IMG/VR virus record: IMGVR_UViG_2645727837_000002
Coordinates: 1 to 64,000 of that record
Source: an uncultured virus (IMG/VR IMGVR_UViG_2645727837_000002)
Lineage: Duplodnaviria; Heunggongvirae; Uroviricota; Caudoviricetes
DNA: 64,000 nt
Strand: one strand, 5' to 3'
This document shows positions 1,324 through 54,248 of this stretch, piece after piece. The notes beneath the pieces are model-generated. The model made no database searches. It saw only the letters and a program-made list of their open reading frames with translations, and was not told where the DNA came from. The stretch's first letter is position 1. Each line of letters opens with the position of its first letter. The translations under genes were made by a program, and so were the position numbers.

Positions 1324-2040
1324 TCAAATCTCGCCAAGAAGCGGCAACAGATCCAATGAAATAAGCCGCGCCTCGATGTTGTGCGCCGCAACCAAATGCT
1401 CTTCGTTGTCGACGGAGAACACCTCGTCCTTGATGCTGACAACAATCGTGCCGAGCCGCTTCTTGCCATCCGCGGAGGCGACGGCAATGAGTTCCTGCGC
1501 CTCCGGGACTTGTTGGGCGGTAAGTTCGACAGGCAGATACAGCATCCATCCGACGCCGGGACGATCATCAAACGCCTGCTTTTGCTCATAGCCCTCAGGC
1601 GCCGCAGTAACAACAGCGGGTGAAAACTCCAGCACAATCTGCTTCACGACGGCGACGGCGTGCTCCTTGTTCTCTGCGAACGCGCCTCGTGCGCCAACCG
1701 TAACCGTGTCAGGAAAGTCTCCACCACACGCAAAGACCGTGATCGACGCGCCAACATCATCGACCGCACCGCCATCCCATATCCCAACAGTGGACCCGAT
1801 TTCACCACGATATTCACTTTCCAGCGCCTCTAGCGCCGTGTTACTCGGCTGACCGTCCACCTGATAAACCTCACTACGCCGAGCCTCTTCTAGAGAATCC
1901 CCTTTCATTCGCCAGTTTGGCCGTGCAAGCGCCGGTTCACCTGCCGCCATCACGTCAATGATTGCACCTGTCTTGGTCAGAATTTGAGCGAAGTCCGTTG
2001 CAGCGACCCCTCCACTCCTGATAATGGCTTCAAATTTCAT
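1324..2040 (-). CDS. Imm52-family immunity protein (TsiT-like)
   Basis: Directly downstream of the REase toxin; FDDRPGVGWMLYLP and C-terminal IEARLISLDLLP resemble Imm52. Confidence 0.8.
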   Translation of the reverse strand: MKFEAIIRSGGVAATDFAQILTKTGAIIDVMAAGEPALARPNWRMKGDSLEEARRSEVYQVDGQPSNTALEALESEYRGEIGSTVGIWDGGAVDDVGASITVFACGGDFPDTVTVGARGAFAENKEHAVAVVKQIVLEFSPAVVTAAPEGYEQKQAFDDRPGVGWMLYLPVELTAQQVPEAQELIAVASADGKKRLGTIVVSIKDEVFSVDNEEHLVAAHNIEARLISLDLLPLLGEI

Positions 2041-2049
2041 AGCGGTATC

Positions 2050-2661
2050 TTACGGAAGATATTCTGACTCGATTGACATCAACCTAAGCAACTTCGACAT
2101 CTTTTGATACGTCAGTGGACCCTGAAAATAATACCTTAACCGGGTCGGCGGATTCGGCTTCACTATGCGCGCACGTTTGCGCGCCTGATCCCCCATCCGA
2201 TCGAGCCCCTTAAAAAATTCGTCCGACTTCGGAATCGACCCATCAAGGAACTGATCGTAGTTCCCCTTGGCCTCTTGTAATAGGCACTCATTTGGCCTGA
2301 ACCCGTCGAACTCGATTCCTAACCACTCCCACTCGTCACTCCATCGACAATTTTCAGTATCAAAGGCGAAGCCGGTCACGCGGGCTTGATAGCGATACGC
2401 CGGCCAGTTGACGCCGTGATTGTTTCGCACGAGCACACCCGTCTGCTCCGGCGGACACTTCCTGCAAGGCTCCGTAGAGTCGGCTGTAGTCCGCGATTCC
2501 GTTTTGGTCTTCGCCTGCTCATCCATCTTGCTAACATCGCCCCGCATACTACCGATGCCCGCTACCGCCGTCCCTCCCAATAAAGCGCTTCCAATAGCTG
2601 ACAATGCCGGCCCCACTTCCGCCGCTACGGCTATCAATAGGGGGATAAACGGTGCTGCCAT
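2050..2661 (-). CDS. Tox-REase-5 nuclease T6SS effector (TseT-like)
   Basis: CxxC (CRKC), YQARVTG and FDGF..CLLQEAKGNY (PD-(D/E)xK); hydrophobic N-terminus. Confidence 0.88.
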   Translation of the reverse strand: MAAPFIPLLIAVAAEVGPALSAIGSALLGGTAVAGIGSMRGDVSKMDEQAKTKTESRTTADSTEPCRKCPPEQTGVLVRNNHGVNWPAYRYQARVTGFAFDTENCRWSDEWEWLGIEFDGFRPNECLLQEAKGNYDQFLDGSIPKSDEFFKGLDRMGDQARKRARIVKPNPPTRLRYYFQGPLTYQKMSKLLRLMSIESEYLP

Positions 2662-3019
2662 GTGGGACTCCCTTCAAGCTATCTGGATGTTGTGATCGCC
2701 AAGTGACTTCTTGGACGTAGACGTGAAAACGCTCATCGGCACTGCGACCGGGCTTCGTGAGCCAAGCCCGCGTCGCGGGTTTCGCGTAGAAGCCTGGCGA
2801 ATAAGCCTCAACCTTCAGGAACTGGACTAGGTGCTCGCTGTCCTTGATGCCGAGCGAGCGCGCGGCCTGATATGCGTCCCACAATCGGTTGGGTAGATCG
2901 ATGTCCTGTGCCAAAGCAGGATCGGCCTTGATCAGATCGCGACGCACACCGTCAACGAAGTTGCGGGCCTCGCCTGCGGCGAGCGCCGAAAGATGGGCGG
3001 GTGTGAGATTAAGCGGCAT
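2549..3019 (-). CDS. Putative effector co-chaperone (co-TecT position)
   Basis: Lies between DUF4123 and the toxin, as in the PAAR-TecT-coTecT-TseT-TsiT gene order; overlaps the toxin 5' end. Confidence 0.6.
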   Translation of the reverse strand: MPLNLTPAHLSALAAGEARNFVDGVRRDLIKADPALAQDIDLPNRLWDAYQAARSLGIKDSEHLVQFLKVEAYSPGFYAKPATRAWLTKPGRSADERFHVYVQEVTWRSQHPDSLKGVPHGSTVYPPIDSRSGGSGAGIVSYWKRFIGRDGGSGHR

Positions 3020-3506
3020 GGGGGTGCGCCCTAAATAGCTGTCCGTCGATCTCGATCAGCCAATCGAAGGTAGGGGAAAAGAACATAGTCCGCTCTGCCG
3101 AACTCAACGCCGGCGCGAAGTACCGCATCACGCGTGCGTCGTAATAGCGCAGCATCGCCGTCCGACCGTCTGGCAATGTAGCATCCAGTCGTTCGCGAAG
3201 CTCATCCGCAAGCAGGCGCGGTTGGTAGGCGCTGATGATCCAGTTCAACCCGTATTCGCCTTGAGCTAAGCGCGTCAACACGTCGCGCGTCGTGCTGTTC
3301 GTCTGCTCGTAATCAAAGAACCACGGGCCGGCATCGGCAAGCGACGCGTCTGGGGTTCCGTCAAGCAGCGCCATCGCCGATTCACCCGAGCGCACTGGTG
3401 CTGAACCGCTCGATTCTGAATACAGCAGACCATCCGCGAGCGCGAATAGGCGGAGCGGAAGACTGGCGCGCGCCTGCCACGAAGAGAAAATGACCTGAAT
3501 ACTCAC
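3009..3506 (-). CDS. DUF4123 T6SS effector chaperone (TecT-like)
   Basis: LFALADG, ADAGPW and MLRYYDARV motifs typical of DUF4123. Confidence 0.88.
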   Translation of the reverse strand: MSIQVIFSSWQARASLPLRLFALADGLLYSESSGSAPVRSGESAMALLDGTPDASLADAGPWFFDYEQTNSTTRDVLTRLAQGEYGLNWIISAYQPRLLADELRERLDATLPDGRTAMLRYYDARVMRYFAPALSSAERTMFFSPTFDWLIEIDGQLFRAHPHAA

Positions 3507-3512
3507 GGCGCG

Positions 3513-3944
3513 TCACCCGCGAACGACCATTGACGCTGCATTCTTAGCAGCAGCAAGCATGCAGGACAGACAGAAGCCCTGCGACGGCTTCGGTGTACCC
3601 GAATCAAGCACCATGCGCCCACCGTCTGCGGCGAAACCCATCCCGAGAAGCTGATGCGATTCAAAGCTCTCATACATGGTGTCTTGCGAAGCAATCATCG
3701 ATGGGCGTGGGCTGCACCCGCAAGCAACCCTGTCCCCCTCAAGAGCGGCCTGATGACCCATCATTTCACCGGGCCATCGCGGCCCCTCGGCAACGATAAC
3801 ACCAAGCTGTTTACAAGCCGGACAGGTTACTTTTGCGCCGATGTAAGTTAGTTCGCGCCCATAGCAAGTCGTAGATGGGATGCCATCGACAACAACACCG
3901 CCGGACGACGAGTAATCGCCAACCCGAAGAAAGTTTCGCTTCAA
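3513..3944 (-). CDS. PAAR-domain T6SS spike tip protein with C-terminal extension
   Basis: RVGDYSSSGGVV..VTCPACK..AALEGDRVACGC..MIASQ; C-terminal CLSC extension. Confidence 0.88.
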   Translation of the reverse strand: MKRNFLRVGDYSSSGGVVVDGIPSTTCYGRELTYIGAKVTCPACKQLGVIVAEGPRWPGEMMGHQAALEGDRVACGCSPRPSMIASQDTMYESFESHQLLGMGFAADGGRMVLDSGTPKPSQGFCLSCMLAAAKNAASMVVRG

Positions 3945-11037: not shown

Positions 11038-11640
11038 TTATGCTTCGACGACGTCGCCGGCTGCTGCGAGGCTCGGGTGCTTCGTGGAGTGGTCACGCAC
11101 TGCGTAGAGGACCTTGAGCTGGTGGAGCACGTCGAACAGTGCGCTGTGGGCGTCGCCTTCGAACGGGATGTTGCGTTCGAACTCGGGCGGTTGCTGCGGC
11201 CAGTAGCGTCCGCGAATCCACGAATTCATGTCGTTGGTGTCGCGGTAGTGGAACGGGTTGCCGATCTCGAATTCCTTGAAGTAGCTTTCGAGGAACGGGT
11301 ATTCGAAGTGCGAAGGCTTCGCCCACAAGCGCAGCTTCTCGTTGTAGGTGTCGACGTCACGCAGCAGGAAGTCGCGGAAAGCCTGCATAACGACTTCCGG
11401 CCGCTCCATGCGCGCGTAGATACCTTGCAGGATCTCGCGCTTGTCCTTGAGCCACCAGTTGCGGGTCTCTTCGTCGAAGAAGCGACCATGCGGGATCATC
11501 AGGCAGCGGTTGAACATATCGGGCATGATCTCGCCCGATGCAAAATCGAAGCGAACCGCCGCGATTTCGATGATTGCCGTGCGCTCAGGCTGAGTGCCAG
11601 TCGTTTCGAGGTCGACCATCACGTCGAGATACTTGGTCAT
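11038..11640 (-). CDS. DEDDh 3'-5' exonuclease
   Basis: VMVDLETTG..RDT..HSALFD. Confidence 0.85.
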   Translation of the reverse strand: MTKYLDVMVDLETTGTQPERTAIIEIAAVRFDFASGEIMPDMFNRCLMIPHGRFFDEETRNWWLKDKREILQGIYARMERPEVVMQAFRDFLLRDVDTYNEKLRLWAKPSHFEYPFLESYFKEFEIGNPFHYRDTNDMNSWIRGRYWPQQPPEFERNIPFEGDAHSALFDVLHQLKVLYAVRDHSTKHPSLAAAGDVVEA

Positions 11641-11653
11641 GCTTTGATCCTTG

Positions 11654-12061
11654 TTAGATGAGGTAGCCGTCGATCTCGTGCCAGCGGATCGATTTGGCCG
11701 TATGGGTGATGAATACGACTGCCGGGACGACGTACCAGCGCTTCGTCGTCTCGCGGCGAATGTAGAAGCGGTAATGCCCGCCAGCTGCGGTGACCATTCG
11801 GGCTGCTGCCCACTGGCTCTTCTTGATCATGCTGAAGGGGAACGACGGCTCGCTTTGAGTGCTCTTGACCTCAGCGTAGAACGTGGTCCCTTCAAGGGTG
11901 ATGATGTAGTCAGACGGTTGCGCATCCTTGAAGGATGCGGCCCGCCCTGTCGAACCGCGAACGTACGCGGTGTCGGTCAAGCGCTGCACATGCGCGCGCT
12001 TGCCGAAGGGCGCGAAGAACGATTCGAACTCGCTCTCCGCGTCTTTCCATACAATGCTCAT
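11654..12061 (-). CDS. RecU-like Holliday junction resolvase (PD-(D/E)xK)
   Basis: PSDYII..FYAEVKST..SQW. Confidence 0.7.
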   Translation of the reverse strand: MSIVWKDAESEFESFFAPFGKRAHVQRLTDTAYVRGSTGRAASFKDAQPSDYIITLEGTTFYAEVKSTQSEPSFPFSMIKKSQWAAARMVTAAGGHYRFYIRRETTKRWYVVPAVVFITHTAKSIRWHEIDGYLI

Positions 12062-12138
12062 TTTTCTTTTACTGATGTGGTGGTGGTGTGCTAAGCATTA
12101 TATGGAGATAACCATCGCAGAAGTTCTGCAACTATATG

Positions 12139-16485: not shown

Positions 16486-16674
16486 TTACCCCGCCACTTC
16501 GTCGGCAGCTTCAGCGCCGACCAGCGCGAGTGCCATCATCGCGTGAGTCGGTTCCGCATCGAGCATCGCCCGGAACTGGGCGGCGATGCCGTCGATCTTG
16601 GTACGATCATCTTCGGGGAGCTTCGAAATCTCGTCTTGAATGACGAGCAGCTGAATACGTTCAGCAGAGGCCAT
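16486..16674 (-). CDS. Hypothetical phage protein
   Basis: AAGGA RBS; operonic position. Confidence 0.65.
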   Translation of the reverse strand: MASAERIQLLVIQDEISKLPEDDRTKIDGIAAQFRAMLDAEPTHAMMALALVGAEAADEVAG

Positions 16675-28724: not shown

Positions 28725-28799
28725 CGTTGTGGTGGTGGTTTGTTAGCGGTTTCGGTGACCGAGGCGCGTGGCCAGACGAGCCTCGTTCAACTTGAACTT

Positions 28800-32140: not shown

Positions 32141-32601
32141 TTCAGCGCCTCCCGCCCCAGTGCCAGGACAGCTTGAGCATTCGCGATCATCTGCGGATTC
32201 GCCAGCGCGTCGTCATGCCAGTCGTCGATCGAGAGCATGCTTTCAAGCGCGTCGACCAGTTGCTTGGTGAGCGCGAGATTGTCTACTGGCGCGATTCCCC
32301 CGAATTGGTTCAGCTTGAACCATTCGACGCGGCCCGCCTTGGTGACGATCGCCATCTTGTCTTCCTTGATGACGATCTTGCCTGCGTCAGTTGCCCCCTG
32401 CTCAGCCAGCTGGGCCATCTTCTTGCCCAGGATCGATTCGCGTTCCTGCCTGAAGTGGTCGTTCATCTGGTCGACTTTCTTCGCGAGATCGAACAGCTCC
32501 GCTTCAGCGTGCTTCTTGCCTTCTTCGGTGCCATCGCGCAACGAAGCGACGAGCACGCCCATGACGCCCGACCAAGTCGGGGTCAATACGATAGTTTTCA
32601 T
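32137..32601 (-). CDS. Hypothetical phage protein
   Basis: Start MKTIV downstream of the terminator, preceded by ACCACCAC. Confidence 0.6.
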   Translation of the reverse strand: MKTIVLTPTWSGVMGVLVASLRDGTEEGKKHAEAELFDLAKKVDQMNDHFRQERESILGKKMAQLAEQGATDAGKIVIKEDKMAIVTKAGRVEWFKLNQFGGIAPVDNLALTKQLVDALESMLSIDDWHDDALANPQMIANAQAVLALGREALK

Positions 32602-32625
32602 GGTGTGTGGTGGTGATGAGGGTAT

Positions 32626-32657
32626 AAAAAAGAGCGCACTGGCCAGAGCGCACTCTT
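32626..32657 (-). terminator. Intrinsic terminator after the DUF1640 gene
   Basis: AAGAGTGCGC..GTGCGCTCTT followed by a T tract on the minus strand. Confidence 0.7.
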
Positions 32658-32676
32658 CCTTAATCAACCGACTGAA

Positions 32677-33039
32677 TCAGCGCAGGAACGCCCTCGAAGC
32701 GATCTGCGCAGCGGTAGCGAGAACTGTCAGGGTCACGAGCCACGTGATCATCGAGGTTTTCGCTTTCTCGATTTCGACACGGAAATCCCCCCGCGTCTCC
32801 GAGAGGCCGAGCTTCATGTCTGCGCGGACGCTGTCGATCTCACGACGCAGATCGGTACGCGTCGCATCGACCTTCTGCTCAACCGCCGTCTGCGTGTTGA
32901 GCAGGTCTTGCTTTGTCGCCAAGGTCTGGTCGATCGCGTCAGCCAGCGCCTCGGCTTGCATCACCGCAGTCTCGCGCGGGACCCCGCCTTGTTCGAGGCG
33001 CTTGACGTAAGCCAAGGTGTCGAAAGCGACAGACATCAT
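32677..33039 (-). CDS. DUF1640/CCDC90-like coiled-coil membrane protein
   Basis: FDTLAYVKRLEQGGVP..AEAL..LATKQDL; C-terminal TM helix; AAGGAG RBS. Confidence 0.8.
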   Translation of the reverse strand: MMSVAFDTLAYVKRLEQGGVPRETAVMQAEALADAIDQTLATKQDLLNTQTAVEQKVDATRTDLRREIDSVRADMKLGLSETRGDFRVEIEKAKTSMITWLVTLTVLATAAQIASRAFLR

Positions 33040-33073
33040 GATTTCTCCTTGTACTTTGTAAGGTGATTCTACG

Positions 33074-35168: not shown

Positions 35169-35477
35169 TCAGAAGACGTATTCGTCGTTGTGGTAGATAG
35201 TCAGCGCCACCGGCGTGTCGGCCGTCGTGTACGGGTTGTAGGTGATACCCGTAATCTTCGCGCCCGTCTCGCTCTCGAATCGGGCAATCGCCCGCTTGAT
35301 GTGCTCGCTCAGTTGAAATTGGAGCAGATCGCGAGCGAACTTCACTTCGCGCCTCGTGTACGGCGCAGGAGGTTCAACTTGAACCGTTGCGTTCGTGATG
35401 AGTTTGTCGACGTCAGCCGCGACCGCTGTATTGACGTCAACTTCAGTCGTATTCTTGGCCAGTTCTTGGGTGCTCAT
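35169..35477 (-). CDS. Hypothetical phage protein
   Basis: Start preceded by CACCACCACCACGGATCAAAAC. Confidence 0.65.
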   Translation of the reverse strand: MSTQELAKNTTEVDVNTAVAADVDKLITNATVQVEPPAPYTRREVKFARDLLQFQLSEHIKRAIARFESETGAKITGITYNPYTTADTPVALTIYHNDEYVF

Positions 35478-35499
35478 GTTTTGATCCGTGGTGGTGGTG

Positions 35500-35685
35500 T
35501 TAGCTTTTGAGCGCGTCCTTTACGCGTTTTTCACCGAGCGGGGTGATACCGTCCAGCATGTCGATATAGCCGAGCTGATAGAGCGTCATGAAGTCGTGCT
35601 CTCGGGTTCCGCACTCAACGTCTTCAACACGAGAACCTCGGTAAAGCGCGAGCAGGATCATCAACTGATTGCAGGTCAGCCTCAC
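35500..35685 (-). CDS. Hypothetical small protein
   Basis: GTGA coupling. Confidence 0.5.
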   Translation of the reverse strand: MRLTCNQLMILLALYRGSRVEDVECGTREHDFMTLYQLGYIDMLDGITPLGEKRVKDALKS

Positions 35686-40808: not shown

Positions 40809-41384
40809 ATGACGATGGAGAAAGAGAAACTTAAGCGCCAGGACTTTACGGTTGAGATGGCTCGCGAGCACTTTGGCTACGACCCAGCAGCAGGTCGCGT
40901 TATTCGTCTGACAAACAGTCCGAGAGGGCCTAGATCTGCCGGAAAAATCGCCAGCTCCTTACACAAACCATCAGGTTTTCGGCAGGTAGTTTTCAAAGGG
41001 TTAGTCATCTATGAACATCATCTCGTATGGGCACTCGCCTATGGATACTGGCCTACAGGCTCGATTCGCCATCGAGACGATGACAAGCAAAACAACCAGG
41101 TTGAGAACCTGTTTGACCCCGCCCAAGTTGTAACCGTAAGTAACCTTGCGGACACGAAAGACGCTTTCCCAGGAGTCATCGTCACCAACTCCGGGAACTA
41201 CAGGGCCACCATTTATCGAGATAAAGCAATCCACCTTGGCACGTTCTCAAGTCCTGTAGAAGCGCATGAGATGTACCTTGCAGCCAAGGTCGTTCTTCAT
41301 AGTCCTCTTAACAGAGGAGTAAGTACCGATGAATTGCTAAAACCTCTTTTGATAAGCCGAAAGGGACTTGCAAAGGTAGGTTGA
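40809..41384 (+). CDS. HNH endonuclease with AP2-like DNA-binding domain
   Basis: HHLVWAL..IRHRDDDKQNNQVENL; FPGV..YRATI..HLGTFSSPVEAHEMY; low GC. Confidence 0.85.
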   Translation: MTMEKEKLKRQDFTVEMAREHFGYDPAAGRVIRLTNSPRGPRSAGKIASSLHKPSGFRQVVFKGLVIYEHHLVWALAYGYWPTGSIRHRDDDKQNNQVENLFDPAQVVTVSNLADTKDAFPGVIVTNSGNYRATIYRDKAIHLGTFSSPVEAHEMYLAAKVVLHSPLNRGVSTDELLKPLLISRKGLAKVG

Positions 41385-41396
41385 GACAGGTAAAGT
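41368..41396 (+). promoter_or_regulatory. Sigma70-type promoter of the candidate sRNA
   Basis: TTGCAA (41368-73), 17-nt spacer, TAAAGT (41391-96). Confidence 0.65.
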
Positions 41397-41402
41397 TAAC
41401 AA

Positions 41403-41568
41403 AGTGCTTGATGATCTGTGGTGGTGAGTCAAGCATGGCAAGTTGAGAGACTTGTCTTAGGCAGTCGAGGTGGCCAGCCTCACTGTCAGCCCTCTTCAGG
41501 GGCATGTTTTGATCAATGTTAGCTGTTAGGTCGCCCCGAGGATTAGCTACCCTCGGGGCGATTTTTTT
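41403..41568 (+). ncRNA. Candidate multi-seed trans-acting small RNA
   Basis: Promoter, four hairpins, an unpaired U-rich tract and a terminator; loops and tract are complementary to motifs at many phage start codons. Confidence 0.75.
41531..41568 (+). terminator. Intrinsic terminator of the candidate sRNA
   Basis: TCGCCCCGAGG, 9-nt loop, CCTCGGGGCGA, then T7. Confidence 0.9.
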
Positions 41569-41616: not shown

Positions 41617-44136
41617 TCAAGCGGCGATGGGCTTCGCGCCAGAAGGGGCCGTCGATGTACTCTGCGAACCCAACGATCCCACAAGTGTGAGGTTTTCGTA
41701 CTGAATCTCCTGTCCCCCCAGCTCCGTGTTTCTGATCGTAAGCTTGAATCCGAACTCGGTAGCCAATTCCCGCATCTTGGCTCTGAACTGCGTCGATCCA
41801 ACAGGCTTGGCACTTCCCGGCCCTACGCAGAAGGACCAGTATGTCTGATAGAGCTTCGTTTCCACCACCGAGATGGGGGCTGAACTCTTCGACCCAGCGG
41901 ATGCCTCCGGTTGGAGAGCGCCCATCCGCACCTTGCCACTCTCCGTGAGAAAAAACCGGACGCTGTTGTTGAGGTTGGCGACTTCACGCATGGTCTGCTT
42001 ATGCGAATCGGGCAACGTGAACTCGTTGTGCGCCTTCAACCGACTCATCGATTGCACGGCCCACGCGACGATCGCTTCACGCTCCTCGACGACGATCACA
42101 TCCCCGAGGTCCAGGCGGCGCTCAGAGGCCTTCACGGGCCGGTTGAACTGAAGCACGAGCCAGCGACGGTTGAAGCCCTCAGACGTGTCTTCCGTGCGCG
42201 GATAGTGGTTCGACGCGAACCAGTGCGTGCAGATCGGCCGGAAGCGGAAGATCTGGCCACCCTTCATCTGCCCTGACATCTCCGCGCCGTCGATAATGTC
42301 CTTGAAGCGCTGGCCGTCGACCAGTTTCTTCTCGCTCAGCTCACCCGCGACGTTGATGATCTTCTCGAACATCTGCGTCGGCAGGAACTTGTCGGCCCAC
42401 TCGTTCGGCGGCACCGCAGCGCGCGCGTTGTCGGGCACGAGCGACTGTGCGATCTTCAACAACTGGCTCTTCCCGGACTTCGGCGCACCCTGAAGCAGCA
42501 CGGCGCGCTGGAAACGCGGGCCGAGACCGAACAGCGTGACGGCCAGCGCCTCTTGAATAGCGTCAAGCTTCTGCTGGTAGTCCTCATCCTCACCCCAGCT
42601 CTTCTTCAGGAATTCGAAGAACATCGGGCAATTTCCCGAGATTTCGGGCAGGTAACGGAACGGCAACGTGTAGATCATGCCGTAGCCGGGGTCGTGATTC
42701 AGCAGCTTCAGGTCTTCCGTGAGGAAGCCGTTCGCGAAGTTCACCCCGCGCACGTCGAGCGTGCGAATACCCTGCGGCAAGATGGTCTTCATCAGGTTGT
42801 GAATGCCGCGGATGTCGTTGAACTTCTTGCACGCTGTCAGATGGCCATAGTCGGCCGAGATCTTCGACAGCACGTAGTTGTCGTCGAGCTTTTCCCAGTG
42901 CGAACCGGCCCACTTCCAGAGAAAGCCGTTATGCGCGCGCACGGGGAACATCTGTTCGAGATCCTTGATAACGGCGCGCGCCACTTCCGACTGATCTTGA
43001 CCCTTGATCTCGCCCATACGCAGCTCTTTGATGCGCGCCTTGAGCGAAGAGAGCTTCAGACCCATGCCACCCGACGTCGAAATGAAGTCAAGGATGCGGT
43101 CCTCTTCGAGCTTGTTGAGGCTCGACGTCGTGGCCACCTTGTGCAGCGCCTTGTCGATCGACTGGCTGCGCTGCGGCGAATCCTTCGGAAAACGCTCGAA
43201 TTCGTCCAGGAGGAACTGCTTGAGGTCGTCGAACCCCCATTCTTCCTGCTCTTTCGTGAAGTCGAGGCTGTACGCCTGCTTCTCTTCGTCGGTCAGACCG
43301 TCGTCCCAACCACTCGGCAGCACCTTCTGCTTGTCGTAGACGTCACGGTGCAGGAACTTGATCATGTTCTTGACGTGCTTGTCGACGTCGATCGGATCAC
43401 CTGCAACGTTCTCCACGAAGTCGGCCGCGTACGCCTGAAGCATACCGATGGCTTCCTTCAACGAGCGGTCGCCGCGCATGACCGCGTACGCGAAGAGGCC
43501 TGCGCGTTCCGTCAGCGACGTGTCGCGCGAGCCGGCCGACGCAAAGTCAACCACGCGCGTCCAACCCGAGTGCGACAGCTCGACGCCGGCTTCCTGCAAC
43601 GCGGCGCGCAGCATCGATTCGATCTGCGGGTCGAGCGCCGGCAGCATGTGGACGACGTCGACCAGCTCGCAGTTCGCCTCGTACGGGCGCTTCGTGTCCG
43701 GGTGGATAGACGGCGGCAGTACGGACTGCGTGCGAGCCGACAGCATTTCGCAGATCGTCTCGCCCGACGTGTTCTTGATACGGAAGGTCTTCAGGCCCGT
43801 GTACTTGAACGCGAGCATCATCCCCTTCTTGCCGATACGGCACCACGGCGACGCCGGCAGCAGACTCTGGATGATCGACGTCAACCGCTGGTCGACCGTG
43901 TCGATGTCCATCATGACGATGCCCGACTGCGGGCCGAGCACGATACCGATGTTCGACGTCGGGCACTGCTCGATCCACACCTGCTGTTGCTCAGGCTCGA
44001 CCGGATGATCGAAGTAACGCGACCAGTCGTTCGGGATCGGCTTCTTCTCTTCGGGGTAAAGCGGGATGACGGGCAGGCCCTTCGCGTAGTACCTCGGTGC
44101 GGTCTGCGCAAAGATCGGTTGACGTTCAGTTCTCAT
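41617..44136 (-). CDS. Bifunctional primase-polymerase fused to a D5-like SF3 helicase
   Basis: N-terminal VIPL..KKP..NIGIVLG..MDID..VLPPSIHP; C-terminal Walker A GAPKSGKS, FASNH, FNRRW. Confidence 0.9.
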   Translation of the reverse strand: MRTERQPIFAQTAPRYYAKGLPVIPLYPEEKKPIPNDWSRYFDHPVEPEQQQVWIEQCPTSNIGIVLGPQSGIVMMDIDTVDQRLTSIIQSLLPASPWCRIGKKGMMLAFKYTGLKTFRIKNTSGETICEMLSARTQSVLPPSIHPDTKRPYEANCELVDVVHMLPALDPQIESMLRAALQEAGVELSHSGWTRVVDFASAGSRDTSLTERAGLFAYAVMRGDRSLKEAIGMLQAYAADFVENVAGDPIDVDKHVKNMIKFLHRDVYDKQKVLPSGWDDGLTDEEKQAYSLDFTKEQEEWGFDDLKQFLLDEFERFPKDSPQRSQSIDKALHKVATTSSLNKLEEDRILDFISTSGGMGLKLSSLKARIKELRMGEIKGQDQSEVARAVIKDLEQMFPVRAHNGFLWKWAGSHWEKLDDNYVLSKISADYGHLTACKKFNDIRGIHNLMKTILPQGIRTLDVRGVNFANGFLTEDLKLLNHDPGYGMIYTLPFRYLPEISGNCPMFFEFLKKSWGEDEDYQQKLDAIQEALAVTLFGLGPRFQRAVLLQGAPKSGKSQLLKIAQSLVPDNARAAVPPNEWADKFLPTQMFEKIINVAGELSEKKLVDGQRFKDIIDGAEMSGQMKGGQIFRFRPICTHWFASNHYPRTEDTSEGFNRRWLVLQFNRPVKASERRLDLGDVIVVEEREAIVAWAVQSMSRLKAHNEFTLPDSHKQTMREVANLNNSVRFFLTESGKVRMGALQPEASAGSKSSAPISVVETKLYQTYWSFCVGPGSAKPVGSTQFRAKMRELATEFGFKLTIRNTELGGQEIQYENLTLVGSLGSQSTSTAPSGAKPIAA

Positions 44137-44677
44137 TCGAAGACTCTTGTGTGGTGGTGGACGCAGCGTCATCGTCGGAACGACGAGTGTTGATTGCGCT
44201 GCGCAGGCGTTCCATGACCTCAGTGCGCTGATCCGGCGACATGCACTCTTCCATGATGCTCAGGACGGTGTCCTGGAAGTCGCGAATCTGCTTGATCCCC
44301 AGTGCACGCTCACGAGCTGTCACCAGACGTTCGAGAAGACTGGTCGCCGTGCGAAAGTACGCCATCCGCTCCGTCTGGTCTGATTGAGGGATGGTCTTGC
44401 CGTAGTTCTTCAGGTCGGCGAAGACTCGATACAGGTCGATGTCGAGACTCGAATCGATCTGGTCCTCGGTGATCTCGAAATCCGCTATGTCAACCTTCTT
44501 TTGTTCAGGTTGAACCTGACGATGAATCAGGTTCGAGATCACTTTCTTGAAATCGACACCGTAAGGGCATGCTTCATCGTCAAGATAGGCCGCATTCTCC
44601 GTGGCCAAGGTAATGATCATCTTGATCGACCACTCGACATGATCGGTAATGACCGGGTAGTGAAAGTCGTTGCTCAT
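44126..44677 (-). CDS. Hypothetical protein divergent from the large terminase (possible small terminase)
   Basis: 183-aa helical ORF coupled to the primase; function inferred from position only. Confidence 0.5.
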   Translation of the reverse strand: MSNDFHYPVITDHVEWSIKMIITLATENAAYLDDEACPYGVDFKKVISNLIHRQVQPEQKKVDIADFEITEDQIDSSLDIDLYRVFADLKNYGKTIPQSDQTERMAYFRTATSLLERLVTARERALGIKQIRDFQDTVLSIMEECMSPDQRTEVMERLRSAINTRRSDDDAASTTTQESSNEN

Positions 44678-49450: not shown

Positions 49451-49873
49451 ATGAGCAACGCTATCGGTAACGGCGTCTCCCTTCGTGGTCTCTACGATGA
49501 GGATTCGCAGTACGCGTTCAACCTGGCCGCAGGCATCAAGAAAGGCCAGGACGAAGGCAAGGCCGTGTCGATCGACCCGACCGCGCCGAACACGGTGAAG
49601 CTGGCAGGCGACGGCGACTTGCTGGTCGGCCGACTCGAAACGATCGAAAACCGCGTGACCGAAGGCCTGAACGTGGGCACGGTCTCGCTGGAAGGCGGTC
49701 ACGACTTCCTGGTCAAAGCGGGCTACGCCGCGACGCCGGGTGATCGCCTCGTCGGCGGCGGCGGCGGCACGGTTCGCAAGGCCGATCCCGCGAAGGACGC
49801 CTTCGGCGGCTACTCGCCGTGGTGTGTCGTCGAAGTGCTCGCCAGCGGCAACGTGGTCGCCATCGAGCTGTAA
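49451..49873 (+). CDS. Head decoration/cement protein
   Basis: Gly-rich 140-aa ORF between the scaffold and the capsid gene. Confidence 0.6.
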   Translation: MSNAIGNGVSLRGLYDEDSQYAFNLAAGIKKGQDEGKAVSIDPTAPNTVKLAGDGDLLVGRLETIENRVTEGLNVGTVSLEGGHDFLVKAGYAATPGDRLVGGGGGTVRKADPAKDAFGGYSPWCVVEVLASGNVVAIEL

Positions 49874-49998
49874 AGAACGGCGGCAGATGACCTCGCCCAC
49901 CACCGGGGTCATCTGCTGGAAAAGCTGCAAAACCCTCGTCAGTTCCGACCACCACCGGGCTGTCGGGGGTTCAAAAACAACTGACAACGGATCAAAAC

Positions 49999-51192
49999 AT
50001 GGCAGATCTGATCGACATCGAGCGCAAGGCCCCTGCGGAGGTACTTGCGAACCTCAAGCCGAGCGACGCGCTCGACACCCAGCGCTCGGTTGACGCTGGC
50101 AAGCGCCTCGTGCGCCTTTCCGCCGAAGCTGGCCTGAACCTGCGTGACTACCTCACGCTCGCGATCGACCCGCGCAAGGCCGAAGACTCGGCCCGCTACG
50201 AAGGCCTGAACGGCTACGAAGCCGCCCTCGCCTACCTGAACCTGCCGGTTCGCCAGGATCTGTCGCAAGGCGTCCTGCTGCAAGCCGCTTCGGAAACGTT
50301 CCAAACGTATCCGGGCACCCGCGCGATGTTCCCGGAAGTCATGGACGACATCCTGCGCTGGAAGAACCGCCAGGACCAGATCGAACAGGTCGCTCCGCTC
50401 GTCGCACAGTCGCGCACGATCAACGGCACCGAGATGATCTCGACGTTCGTCGAAGACGACTCGAACGAGCGCACGACGCACACGATCCCGGAACTGGGCC
50501 GCATCCCGGTTCGCACGATCCGCACGTCGCAACAGACGGTCGGCATCTTTAAGCACGGCTCGGGCTACCGTACCTCGTACGAATTCAATCGCCGCGCTTC
50601 GCTCGACATCATGACGCCGTTTGCAGCGCGCGTCGGCCGCGAGCTGGAGATCTCGAAGGTGCGTGCCGCGACGGCCATCCTGATCAACGGCGACGGCGTC
50701 AACGGCGCAGCCGGCGTGGTCAAGGTGTCGGATTTCGGCGGCGACGCCAGCAAGGCGTTCTCGTCGAACTACAAGGCGCTCGCGAAGTGGCTCATGGCCC
50801 GCGCGAAGGCTGGCTACCCGATCGACACGATTATCGGCAACTACGACATGTTCGTGGAGCTGCTGTTCATGTTCCAGCCGGTGACGGGCATCTCGGGCGC
50901 GCACGCGACCGACATCGAAGCGCTGGTCGCGCAGGGTACGCCGAAGATCAACACGCAGGTGCCGATCCTCAACCAATCGGTGAACTTCCACCTGTCGTCG
51001 GCCGTGCCGGAAGGCAAGCTGGTCGGCTTCACGAAGGCTGAAACGCTGGAAGAGCTGATCGAAGCCGGCTCGAACATCTCGGAAAACGAGCGTTCGATCC
51101 TGAACCAGTCGATCACCTACGTGCGTACGGAAAACACCGGCTACAAGCTGGCGTTCCCGGACACGCGCCAAGTCCTCGACGTGACCGCGTAA
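49999..51192 (+). CDS. Major capsid protein
   Basis: 397 aa, position, strong codon bias, terminator follows. Confidence 0.85.
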   Translation: MADLIDIERKAPAEVLANLKPSDALDTQRSVDAGKRLVRLSAEAGLNLRDYLTLAIDPRKAEDSARYEGLNGYEAALAYLNLPVRQDLSQGVLLQAASETFQTYPGTRAMFPEVMDDILRWKNRQDQIEQVAPLVAQSRTINGTEMISTFVEDDSNERTTHTIPELGRIPVRTIRTSQQTVGIFKHGSGYRTSYEFNRRASLDIMTPFAARVGRELEISKVRAATAILINGDGVNGAAGVVKVSDFGGDASKAFSSNYKALAKWLMARAKAGYPIDTIIGNYDMFVELLFMFQPVTGISGAHATDIEALVAQGTPKINTQVPILNQSVNFHLSSAVPEGKLVGFTKAETLEELIEAGSNISENERSILNQSITYVRTENTGYKLAFPDTRQVLDVTA

Positions 51193-53618: not shown

Positions 53619-54076
53619 AAAGCGAAAACCTCTATGGCGATCACCTGTCGAGTCTCCTGAGATTCTGCGCAGACCAAGCGACCAGCCTTCAGGCCTCAAC
53701 GGGCATATCGCTTCAACCCGTCTTCTTCGACTCATACAACGACTACGACAAGCTACCATCCGGCAACCTGATCGGAGTCGCGCAGTATTCACTCGACTTT
53801 GACGAACATCTGACGACGGTATCGGCTGTCGTCGGAGTCGCGACCGAGAACGATACGAACGACTTTAATCTCACGCGAGTGATGAGCGCACTGGTTCAGC
53901 GGCTGCTACCGACGAAGTCGATCGACGTGCTCGATGCGTTGAAGGGGGACAAGCTGGGGACGATGGTGGTGCAAAACGGCGTTCGCGTCTTGCCAGTAGG
54001 TGGTGGGTTGGGACGATCCATGAAGTGGGTGGCGTTCATGGCATCGTCCACGGTTACTGCGGATCTTTCTTCGTAA
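53615..54076 (+). CDS. Putative tail terminator protein
   Basis: Position before the tail tube gene. Confidence 0.5.
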   Translation: MKSENLYGDHLSSLLRFCADQATSLQASTGISLQPVFFDSYNDYDKLPSGNLIGVAQYSLDFDEHLTTVSAVVGVATENDTNDFNLTRVMSALVQRLLPTKSIDVLDALKGDKLGTMVVQNGVRVLPVGGGLGRSMKWVAFMASSTVTADLSS

Positions 54077-54248
54077 TGCTGCTGATGAGCTTCTGATCGG
54101 CGCTCGTAGCGTTGTCGATCGCGGTTTCAAGCAGATGGATGATCTCTGCATTCCGCGTTCGACGGTTAACTCTCGCACGCTGCTTGATCTGAACATCGAG
54201 CGTGACAGGGATGCGTACCGTAAAGGCTTCTCGCTCTTCCAACTCCAT
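54054..54248 (-). CDS. Arc-like ribbon-helix-helix DNA-binding protein
   Basis: FTVRIPVTL..IKQRARVNRRTRNAEIIHLL; GGAGG RBS. Confidence 0.85.
   Translation of the reverse strand: MELEEREAFTVRIPVTLDVQIKQRARVNRRTRNAEIIHLLETAIDNATSADQKLISSITKKDPQ

Follow-up and report, generated by a model that had tools for sequence, protein, structure and literature searches.

The leader of the major capsid protein gene and a small RNA encoded elsewhere in the same phage genome are, we conclude with high confidence from sequence comparison, a real, conserved and covarying pair. On balance the leader is probably a high-affinity operator of this RNA, a phage-made, trans-acting antisense molecule that would repress, at the level of translation, between a quarter and a third of the phage genes. 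The window, the whole 64,000-nucleotide stretch that was analyzed, corresponds to bases 1–64000 of a 79,966-base virus record (G000) classed as a provirus and opens with a tyrosine integrase gene (1–1275, + strand). The 397-aa capsid protein (gene at 49999–51192, +) is 74% identical to that of Achromobacter phage JWF and 50% identical to that of Caulobacter phage Seuss; judged by its sequence, the phage is a temperate, Burkholderia-type, JWF/Seuss-like phage. Because Burkholderia paludis carries a prophage with 96% primase identity to the window's phage, the host is probably a Burkholderia. Adjoining the integrase, a cargo cluster (1324–3944, −) encodes PAAR, DUF4123, Tox-REase-5 and Imm52 proteins, an interbacterial toxin–immunity module; the other genomes tested yielded neither its toxin nor its immunity gene. 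An Arc-like gene (54054–54248, −), conserved in JWF, opposes the late operon, and a radical SAM gene conserved in the window's clade and the JWF group lies between the tail and lysis genes, outside the window (G000 70413–71765).

The capsid leader occupies the 125-nt gap between the stop codon of a 140-aa gene homologous to JWF gp10 (49451–49873, +) and the capsid start. Both hairpins proposed there by the first-pass annotation are present. In hairpin 1, 49883–49895 pairs with 49904–49916 through 12 Watson–Crick pairs and one G·U around the loop CCCACCAC, and the stem extends to 15 pairs (49881–49918, +), so that a G–C pair closes the 8-nt loop NCCACCAC at 49896–49903. Hairpin 2 (49931–49971, +) presents ACCACCAC at 49948–49955. 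Both loops carry CCACCAC, are predicted to be fully unpaired, and lie 50 and 100 nt 5′ of the AUG, outside the ribosome footprint; the leader fold beats 200 of 200 shuffles (z −4.3). Across eight aligned capsid leaders the hairpin 1 loop is invariant and the stems are divergent. Among 28 capsid loci, 12 have a loop-and-tag leader (one with a single hairpin) in which the stems vary and the loops stay NCCACCAC, and 15 more distant loci have ordinary leaders. Downstream of the hairpins, an A/C-rich run with the tag GGATCAAAAC leads into the AUG at 49999–50001 (49972–50001, +), with a Shine-Dalgarno core GGA at 49989–49991. When coding sequence is included, a 6-pair hairpin of CGGAUC with GAUCUG (49988–50010, +) is also predicted to enclose the AUG.

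The candidate RNA, of ~165 nt, spans 41404–41568 (+), its ends being placed by prediction, and folds with a z-score of −4.7 into four hairpins followed by 24 unpaired nucleotides and a terminator: H1 at 41404–41436, H2 at 41437–41456, H3 at 41460–41487, H4 at 41489–41503, the single-stranded tract at 41504–41527 and the terminator at 41528–41568. A putative sigma-70-like promoter, TTGCAA-17-TAAAGT (41368–41396, +), matches the consensus at 8 of 12 positions in the window and at 9 of 12 in six homologues, and a promoter-like site matching 8–10 of 12 occurs in 13 of 13 units. A consensus scanner called neither the promoter, which fell under its cut-off, nor the terminator, whose loop exceeds its limit. 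Two segments qualify as guides. Guide 1, GAUCUGUGGUGGUGAG (41413–41428, +), is complementary to CCACCAC tags and invariant in 12 of 12 homologues, and its complement is enriched at gene starts in all seven RNA-bearing genomes. Guide 2, the CAUGUUUUGAUC tract (41503–41527, +), is complementary to a Shine-Dalgarno core, spacer and AUG. The tip of H3 carries a third invariant element, GUGGCCAGC (41470–41478, +), in a self-complementary loop; its complement is enriched solely in the window's genome and in G002/G003, and it is a possible minor third guide. Together with GUUUYGAUC, GAUCUGUGGUGGUGAG and GUGGCCAGC are the elements invariant across the 12 homologues, in which both sides have changed in 20 of 36 consensus pairs and the terminator stem covaries. 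Pairing is preserved in 94.9% of cells, far above slid controls, the structure having been derived from the same alignment. No conserved ORF occurs in the RNA among its homologues, and Rfam gave no match at gathering score in the window and chance-level hits only in the homologues. The H3 loop UGGCCA (41470–41478) and the terminator loop UAGCUA (41544–41549) are each self-complementary; CTGGCCA occurs near nine starts in the window's genome, and TAGCTA repeats precede the integrase in G002 and G003.

The RNA gene lies directly 3′ of an HNH endonuclease gene (40809–41384, +), an arrangement found in seven of seven RNA-bearing genomes, and converges on the primase gene; no tagged gene start lies shortly downstream of it, unlike the G022-type units described below. 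JWF and phage 2-1 have the HNH gene without the RNA. A short structured stretch 3′ of the HNH gene in JWF was weighed as a possible variant of the RNA and rejected, the start motifs of JWF being ordinary Shine-Dalgarno sequences and a palindrome only. Searched with a model of the RNA, 85 sources (1.62 Mb) yielded one partial hit, to the terminator only, and no full-length homologue outside the window; a metagenome primase scan confirmed 0 of 43 candidates. Nine metagenome matches to the RNA pattern were set aside as chance, since no phage genes adjoin them and the eight that were checked lack a model match. The literature searched, mostly non-subscription papers without supplements, holds no earlier description of the RNA or the motif.

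The first-pass annotation had also aligned the end of the leader with the RNA tract, and this match is confirmed: 49976–50001 corresponds to the reverse complement of 41503–41527, with a perfect 12-mer at 49990–50001 and ~22 pairs in total. The computed duplex energy is −24.5 kcal/mol for leader positions −28 to +3 and −25.8 kcal/mol for −32 to +6, against a mean of −8.2 kcal/mol for shuffled tracts, none of which reached the observed value in 2000 trials. The 7-bp loop seed as a free duplex is worth −12.1 kcal/mol, and in the predicted fold of the RNA a weak 3-pair helix holds the final GG of the seed and would need to open. Only one such loop is available per RNA, and a leader with two would therefore be captured faster or bind two RNA molecules; that the self-complementary H3 and terminator loops could allow an RNA dimer is speculation. 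The pairing itself is further backed by lineage-specific covariation and has strong comparative support. Masking of the start codon is our leading reading as well; loop–loop kissing ahead of that occlusion, as the first-pass annotation has it, is a possible route. The accompanying claim that the capsid leader is the single strongest target is overstated. It ranks second among 88 starts on either measure: tract energy, where the exonuclease gene at 11640 leads, and tract plus best loop, where the gene at 35477 does. It is better described as one of the top few targets in a regulon of ~27 genes.

Both capsid-leader motifs recur at other gene starts. On the sense strand of the whole genome, 29 of 35 CCACCAC sites fall within −110 to +27 of a start (16% expected), and the motif lies near 27 of 88 gene starts; five starts other than that of the capsid gene have two or more tags within −120 to +27. 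These figures rest on a purpose-made gene caller whose 68 predictions for JWF recovered 58 of its 76 RefSeq starts, and starts were corrected or added by hand, eight for the site count and thirteen for the 88-start ranking. The 12-mer also precedes the genes starting at 16674 and 35477. Tagged genes include those for primase, resolvase, SbcD, ligase, thymidylate synthase, portal, tail chaperone and excisionase, and many small early genes; the excisionase gene, outside the window at G000 78799, has three tags. Among the predicted targets on the − strand, the early-gene leader at 35477–35500 carries both tags, the exonuclease leader spans 11640–11670, and the primase leader (44136–44160) has CCACCACCAC and no Shine-Dalgarno sequence. 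In the Holliday-junction resolvase leader (12061–12090, −), CCACCACCAC replaces the Shine-Dalgarno sequence seen in JWF.

Most tags cluster at −24 to −12, within a full range of −100 to +24, and some lie in codons 2–8. Their presence goes with weaker Shine-Dalgarno sequences: 31% of 118 tagged genes have one, against 53% of 467 untagged genes. The difference is larger for near tags (21% of 67 genes vs 53% of 447 untagged) and weak for far tags (41% of 49, p 0.10). Relative to their JWF orthologues, 13 tagged genes have Shine-Dalgarno sites weaker by a mean of 2.0 kcal/mol and 20 untagged genes by 0.0 (p 0.04), strong sites having been lost from primase, resolvase and MazG. Much of this loss arises because the tag occupies the same stretch of the leader. 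Wobble variants of the CCACCAC core are not enriched, and the tag alone is therefore no proof of RNA pairing.

Comparison of close relatives ties the tags to the RNA. A 16-mer of the RNA is found in 5/5 and 1/5 records of the two sets tested. In a quick, midpoint-rooted tree of 30 genomes the RNA-bearing genomes form a single clade whose sister is the JWF group and whose earliest branch is the window's phage. Of 585 called starts in the seven RNA-bearing genomes, 112 have CCACCAC nearby; in GC-rich relatives that lack the RNA, 20 of 1177 do. For CACCAC the density near starts is 1.7–3.9 per kb in those seven and 0–0.7 in eight others. Scanned along the RNA, enrichment of the complement at starts centers on the H1 loop (7/7 genomes) and the tract (5/7), other hits being scattered, and some leaders of G009 match 13 bases of H1 exactly. 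One relative, G001, has the RNA and an untagged capsid leader with an ordinary Shine-Dalgarno sequence; it also has the fewest tags and no integrase.

The tract and its targets change together. In G004 the tract reads GUUUCGAUCC and the capsid gene is preceded by GGATCGAAAC; with C in the tract, G occupies the facing position at 8 of 8 called sites, whereas genomes with U have A at 32, G at 7 and another base at 3, each wobble switch representing a single evolutionary event. For five distinct tracts, the cognate assignment of tract to capsid leader is the best of 120 permutations, and for seven lineages it ties for best at 6/5040; this test omitted G001, whose leader is untagged, and L004, whose tract is identical to another, and paired RNA L034 with leader L008, which lie on different contigs matched by primase similarity. 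The tract falls short of the AUG in G001, G002, G003 and G009. This joint change of RNA and tags across relatives suggests that the RNA probably switches off many phage genes at once.

The same layout recurs with other sequences in a separate clade made up of Pseudoalteromonas phage KB12-38 and five IMG/VR genomes. In KB12-38, GGATTGAC precedes ~27 starts, and one inverted copy sits in a 167-nt gap, flanked by TTGACT-17-TACTAT on one side and by a hairpin ending in a U-rich tail on the other. This promoter–RNA–terminator unit (L127 13765–13933, −) is complementary to the GGATTGAC tags, and its U-rich tail also mirrors the AAACTAAA motif found 5′ of many of them. The five IMG/VR genomes (G022, G023, G025, G027 and G029) have GGAAATYGAC at 25–34 starts and one inverted copy each. 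That copy lies in an ~85-nt unit (G022:C1 65750–65835, + and its equivalents in the other four) that begins with TTGACA-17-TAGTAT or TAATCT, is complementary to GGAAATYGACGATG and has hardly any sequence other than guide and terminator. Opposite an A in the RNA, the tag has T at 95 of 96 sites and never C; opposite a G, T occurs at 35 sites and C at 22, the mixture that G·U wobble predicts. Pooled over the tract-type tags of 13 genomes, 142 transitions keep pairing through G·U and 22 do not, a count to be read in light of the relatedness of the genomes, the few independent events and the additional constraint on GG from Shine-Dalgarno pairing. Two or more bases of the AUG are predicted to pair at 27 of 34 sites in G022 and 21 of 31 in G029. 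Since the KB12-38 and G022-type units lie ~90 nt 5′ of a tagged gene, a cis fold is possible there.

The model of the window's RNA has no match in KB12-38, G022 or G029, and the sequences suggest that the design arose in at least two clades and three sequence families. Milder start motifs occur in G007, in G021 (GAGGATCACATG at five starts) and in G024 (AATCCG..AGGATCA at ~12), and no convincing inverted unit was found in these three genomes. In KB12-38, the gap at 32430–33045 turned out to be a + strand gene that had gone uncalled. Uncalled genes also overwhelmed a blind sliding-window search for antisense units, and the KB12-38 capsid as query returned no further relatives.

Taken as an antisense repressor, the RNA would be made by host RNA polymerase from the sigma-70 promoter early in infection and in the lysogen. 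The G/U-rich H1 loop would dock on exposed CCACCAC tags, with the two tag-bearing hairpin loops of the capsid leader raising the chance of capture, and the single-stranded tract would then pair over the GGA, spacer and AUG and keep the 30S subunit off. Without the RNA, the A/C-rich, weakly structured leaders would be translated well despite a short Shine-Dalgarno sequence. The RNA would thus serve as a global brake on the lytic programme, released once target mRNA outnumbers it. Repression is the fairly likely sign of regulation: the guides cover the GGA at Shine-Dalgarno spacing and usually the AUG, tags also sit in first codons, and guide and terminator make up nearly the whole of the short RNAs. 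Silencing of C/A-rich enhancers in the manner of GcvB would explain the tagged genes that lack a strong Shine-Dalgarno sequence.

The opposite sign, a translational activator that acts as an adaptor bringing 30S subunits to tagged mRNAs in place of a Shine-Dalgarno sequence, is unlikely but accounts for several of the same observations. The H1 loop GGUGGUGA could pair with the 16S 3′ tail until a perfect tag displaces the tail and leaves the 30S at the start, or a dimer formed through the self-complementary loops could bridge tag and 16S. Such an adaptor also predicts that tags replace Shine-Dalgarno sequences and that sites are weaker than in JWF orthologues; the richest leader, with no more than GGA as its Shine-Dalgarno sequence, belongs to the capsid gene, whose output has to be highest; pairing of H1 with the 16S tail of Burkholderia is computed at −10.8 kcal/mol; GGATCA occurs at 16S position 1520; and the RNA is retained in phages without integrase. 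However, initiation could begin only once duplexes of ~20 kcal/mol had been cleared from GGA and AUG, tag positions spread from −100 to +24, much of the Shine-Dalgarno loss is explained by the tag lying where that sequence would be, with a weak difference at far tags, and no effector part is obvious in the KB12-38 and G022-type RNAs. The 16S complementarity of four RNAs was nowhere longer than 9 nt. We know of no bacterial precedent for such an activating adaptor.

Rather unlikely is a scheme in which pairing acts mainly through premature termination, cleavage or decay, or in which the capsid leader is a late sponge that locks in lysis. P4 CI RNA does act by termination, the capsid loops lie beyond the ribosome footprint and are kept while their stems change, and the HNH gene stands directly 5′ of the RNA in every RNA-bearing genome. 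Against this, the bulk of the tags sit at −24 to −12, the tract covers the ribosome-binding site, and the HNH gene is also present in the RNA-less JWF and 2-1. It is improbable that the tags are protein-binding sites on RNA or DNA, of the stoperator kind, with the inverted copies acting as a decoy or as additional sites. Like the stoperators of mycobacteriophage L5 and the SAS motifs (PMC3203893), the tags lack symmetry, follow the direction of transcription and sit at gene starts, and the CCACCAC core tolerates no wobble variants. But a protein-site reading leaves aside that complements of two different tags occur in one structured 165-nt unit, made antisense by a promoter and a U-tailed terminator, that flanks beyond the core covary with the capsid leader, and that transitions in 13 related genomes keep G·U pairing by 142 to 22. 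Chance, or a tract that is merely the leader of a small − strand gene (ORF 41308–41505, 65 codons, starting at the tract), is very improbable, given the failure of all 2000 shuffles, a start codon missing in 4 of 12 homologues (L009–L012) and stems that covary on the + strand.

For the preferred antisense repressor, a role in lysogeny or immunity is plausible at somewhat less than even odds. It is favored because integrases are common, excisionase genes are tagged and the integrase-less G001 has the fewest tags. Integrase genes are present in the window, G002, G003, KB12-38, G022, G023, G027 and G029, that is, in three of six complete genomes of the window's clade and five of six of the other clade, whose sixth is 81% complete. 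G001, G004 and G005 are complete, lack an integrase and keep the RNA, and G004 has as many tags as the temperate genomes; the branching order suggests that integrase was lost in G001 and in G004/G005. The tag system was not found in four temperate relatives (G007, G019, G020 and G026). Its retention without integrase and its absence from these relatives indicate that it is neither limited to lysogeny nor required for it. Integrase genes are themselves tagged in G002 and G003, which counts against such a role, integrase being needed to establish lysogeny. An S24-type repressor was found in 0 of 27 genomes, small HTH genes occur in most of the genomes examined for repressors, and the presence of a repressor does not split the groups. 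The early region of the window also contains a palindrome, GGTTCAA(C/G)TTGAA, at 28785, 33831, 35371, 37441 and 38847; the palindromes of JWF, KB12-38, G004 and G022 differ from it. By analogy with ESAS repeats, these palindromes are probably operators of a phage regulator.

We entertain, without holding it to be the likelier case, that the small RNA is a master switch, either a CI-replacing repressor that masks ribosome-binding-site tags or, with low probability, a trans-acting Shine-Dalgarno adaptor. In the repressor form, guide changes may act as immunity types. If the RNA represses, the lytic programme would be held silent by translational control in phages that yielded no CI-type repressor; activation would represent a new route of translation initiation in bacteria. 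Either way, one RNA appears to have co-evolved with tags at 20–35 of its own phage's start sites, a one-base guide change being matched genome-wide. The capsid leader and its natural variants offer ready allele-specific test pairs. Such a design may explain unexplained start-associated motifs in other phages and bears directly on the question, raised in 2011, of what binds them.

The closest known systems, by analogy, are the C4 RNA of P1, GcvB and the SAS motifs of mycobacteriophages. P4 CI RNA is likewise a structured phage RNA with two target-binding segments and functions in immunity and lysogeny. The C4 RNA of P1 and P7 (PMC5320573) serves immunity and lysogeny through two segments, an upstream one for specificity and one that occludes a ribosome-binding site; the window's RNA similarly has two separate leader-complementary segments, the H1 loop and the tract over the ribosome-binding site. 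C4 is a cloverleaf cut by RNase P and targets one antirepressor operon, whereas the window's RNA has a different fold with its own terminator and ~27 targets genome-wide. The C4 Rfam model has no match at E ≤ 5 in three homologous loci and none at gathering score in the window, and no antirepressor is named among the 61 proteins scanned, a part of the genes.

Phage antisense RNAs in the portions of the literature covered act on one or two phage transcripts. Among them sar of P22, OOP and aQ of lambda and STnc6030 of BTP1 lower phage gene expression and affect lysogeny or superinfection (PMC12197685, PMC7067206). Each acts on one gene or transcript, mostly from its opposite strand; the window's RNA, in contrast, is encoded apart and would reach a regulon through shared tags. 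In the passages covered, the 2025 phage sRNA review (PMC12197685) describes no such regulon, and PMC5737381 and PMC7067206 present nothing closer.

In Cluster K mycobacteriophages the SAS is an asymmetric motif over ribosome-binding sites, preceded at a subset by the inverted repeats of the ESAS; PMC3203893 reports a single opposite-orientation copy in four genomes and leaves open whether RNA or protein is the binder. KB12-38, the five IMG/VR genomes and the 12-mer of the window's tract match this layout, although the SAS sequence and its phages are unrelated to the window's, so that the link is a lead only. In phage Angelica the single inverted SAS copy (L272 535–547; 58634–58646) lies within annotated gene 92, in the predicted loop of a hairpin that follows another hairpin, and marks a candidate anti-SAS RNA; no inverted copy within two mismatches occurs in Pixie or TM4. 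GcvB uses a G/U-rich seed to pair with C/A-rich leader elements of many mRNAs, elements that enhance translation and that the RNA silences (PMC3879156). The window's RNA resembles it in seed and tags; GcvB is a host RNA acting on host genes, whereas the phage RNA would target the phage's own genes with a hairpin-loop seed and a near-exact tag. A conserved, accessible seed with covarying targets, which marks trans-encoded base-pairing sRNAs, is what we find in the window's RNA, and by these comparisons it would work most like the C4 RNA of P1, with the reach of GcvB.
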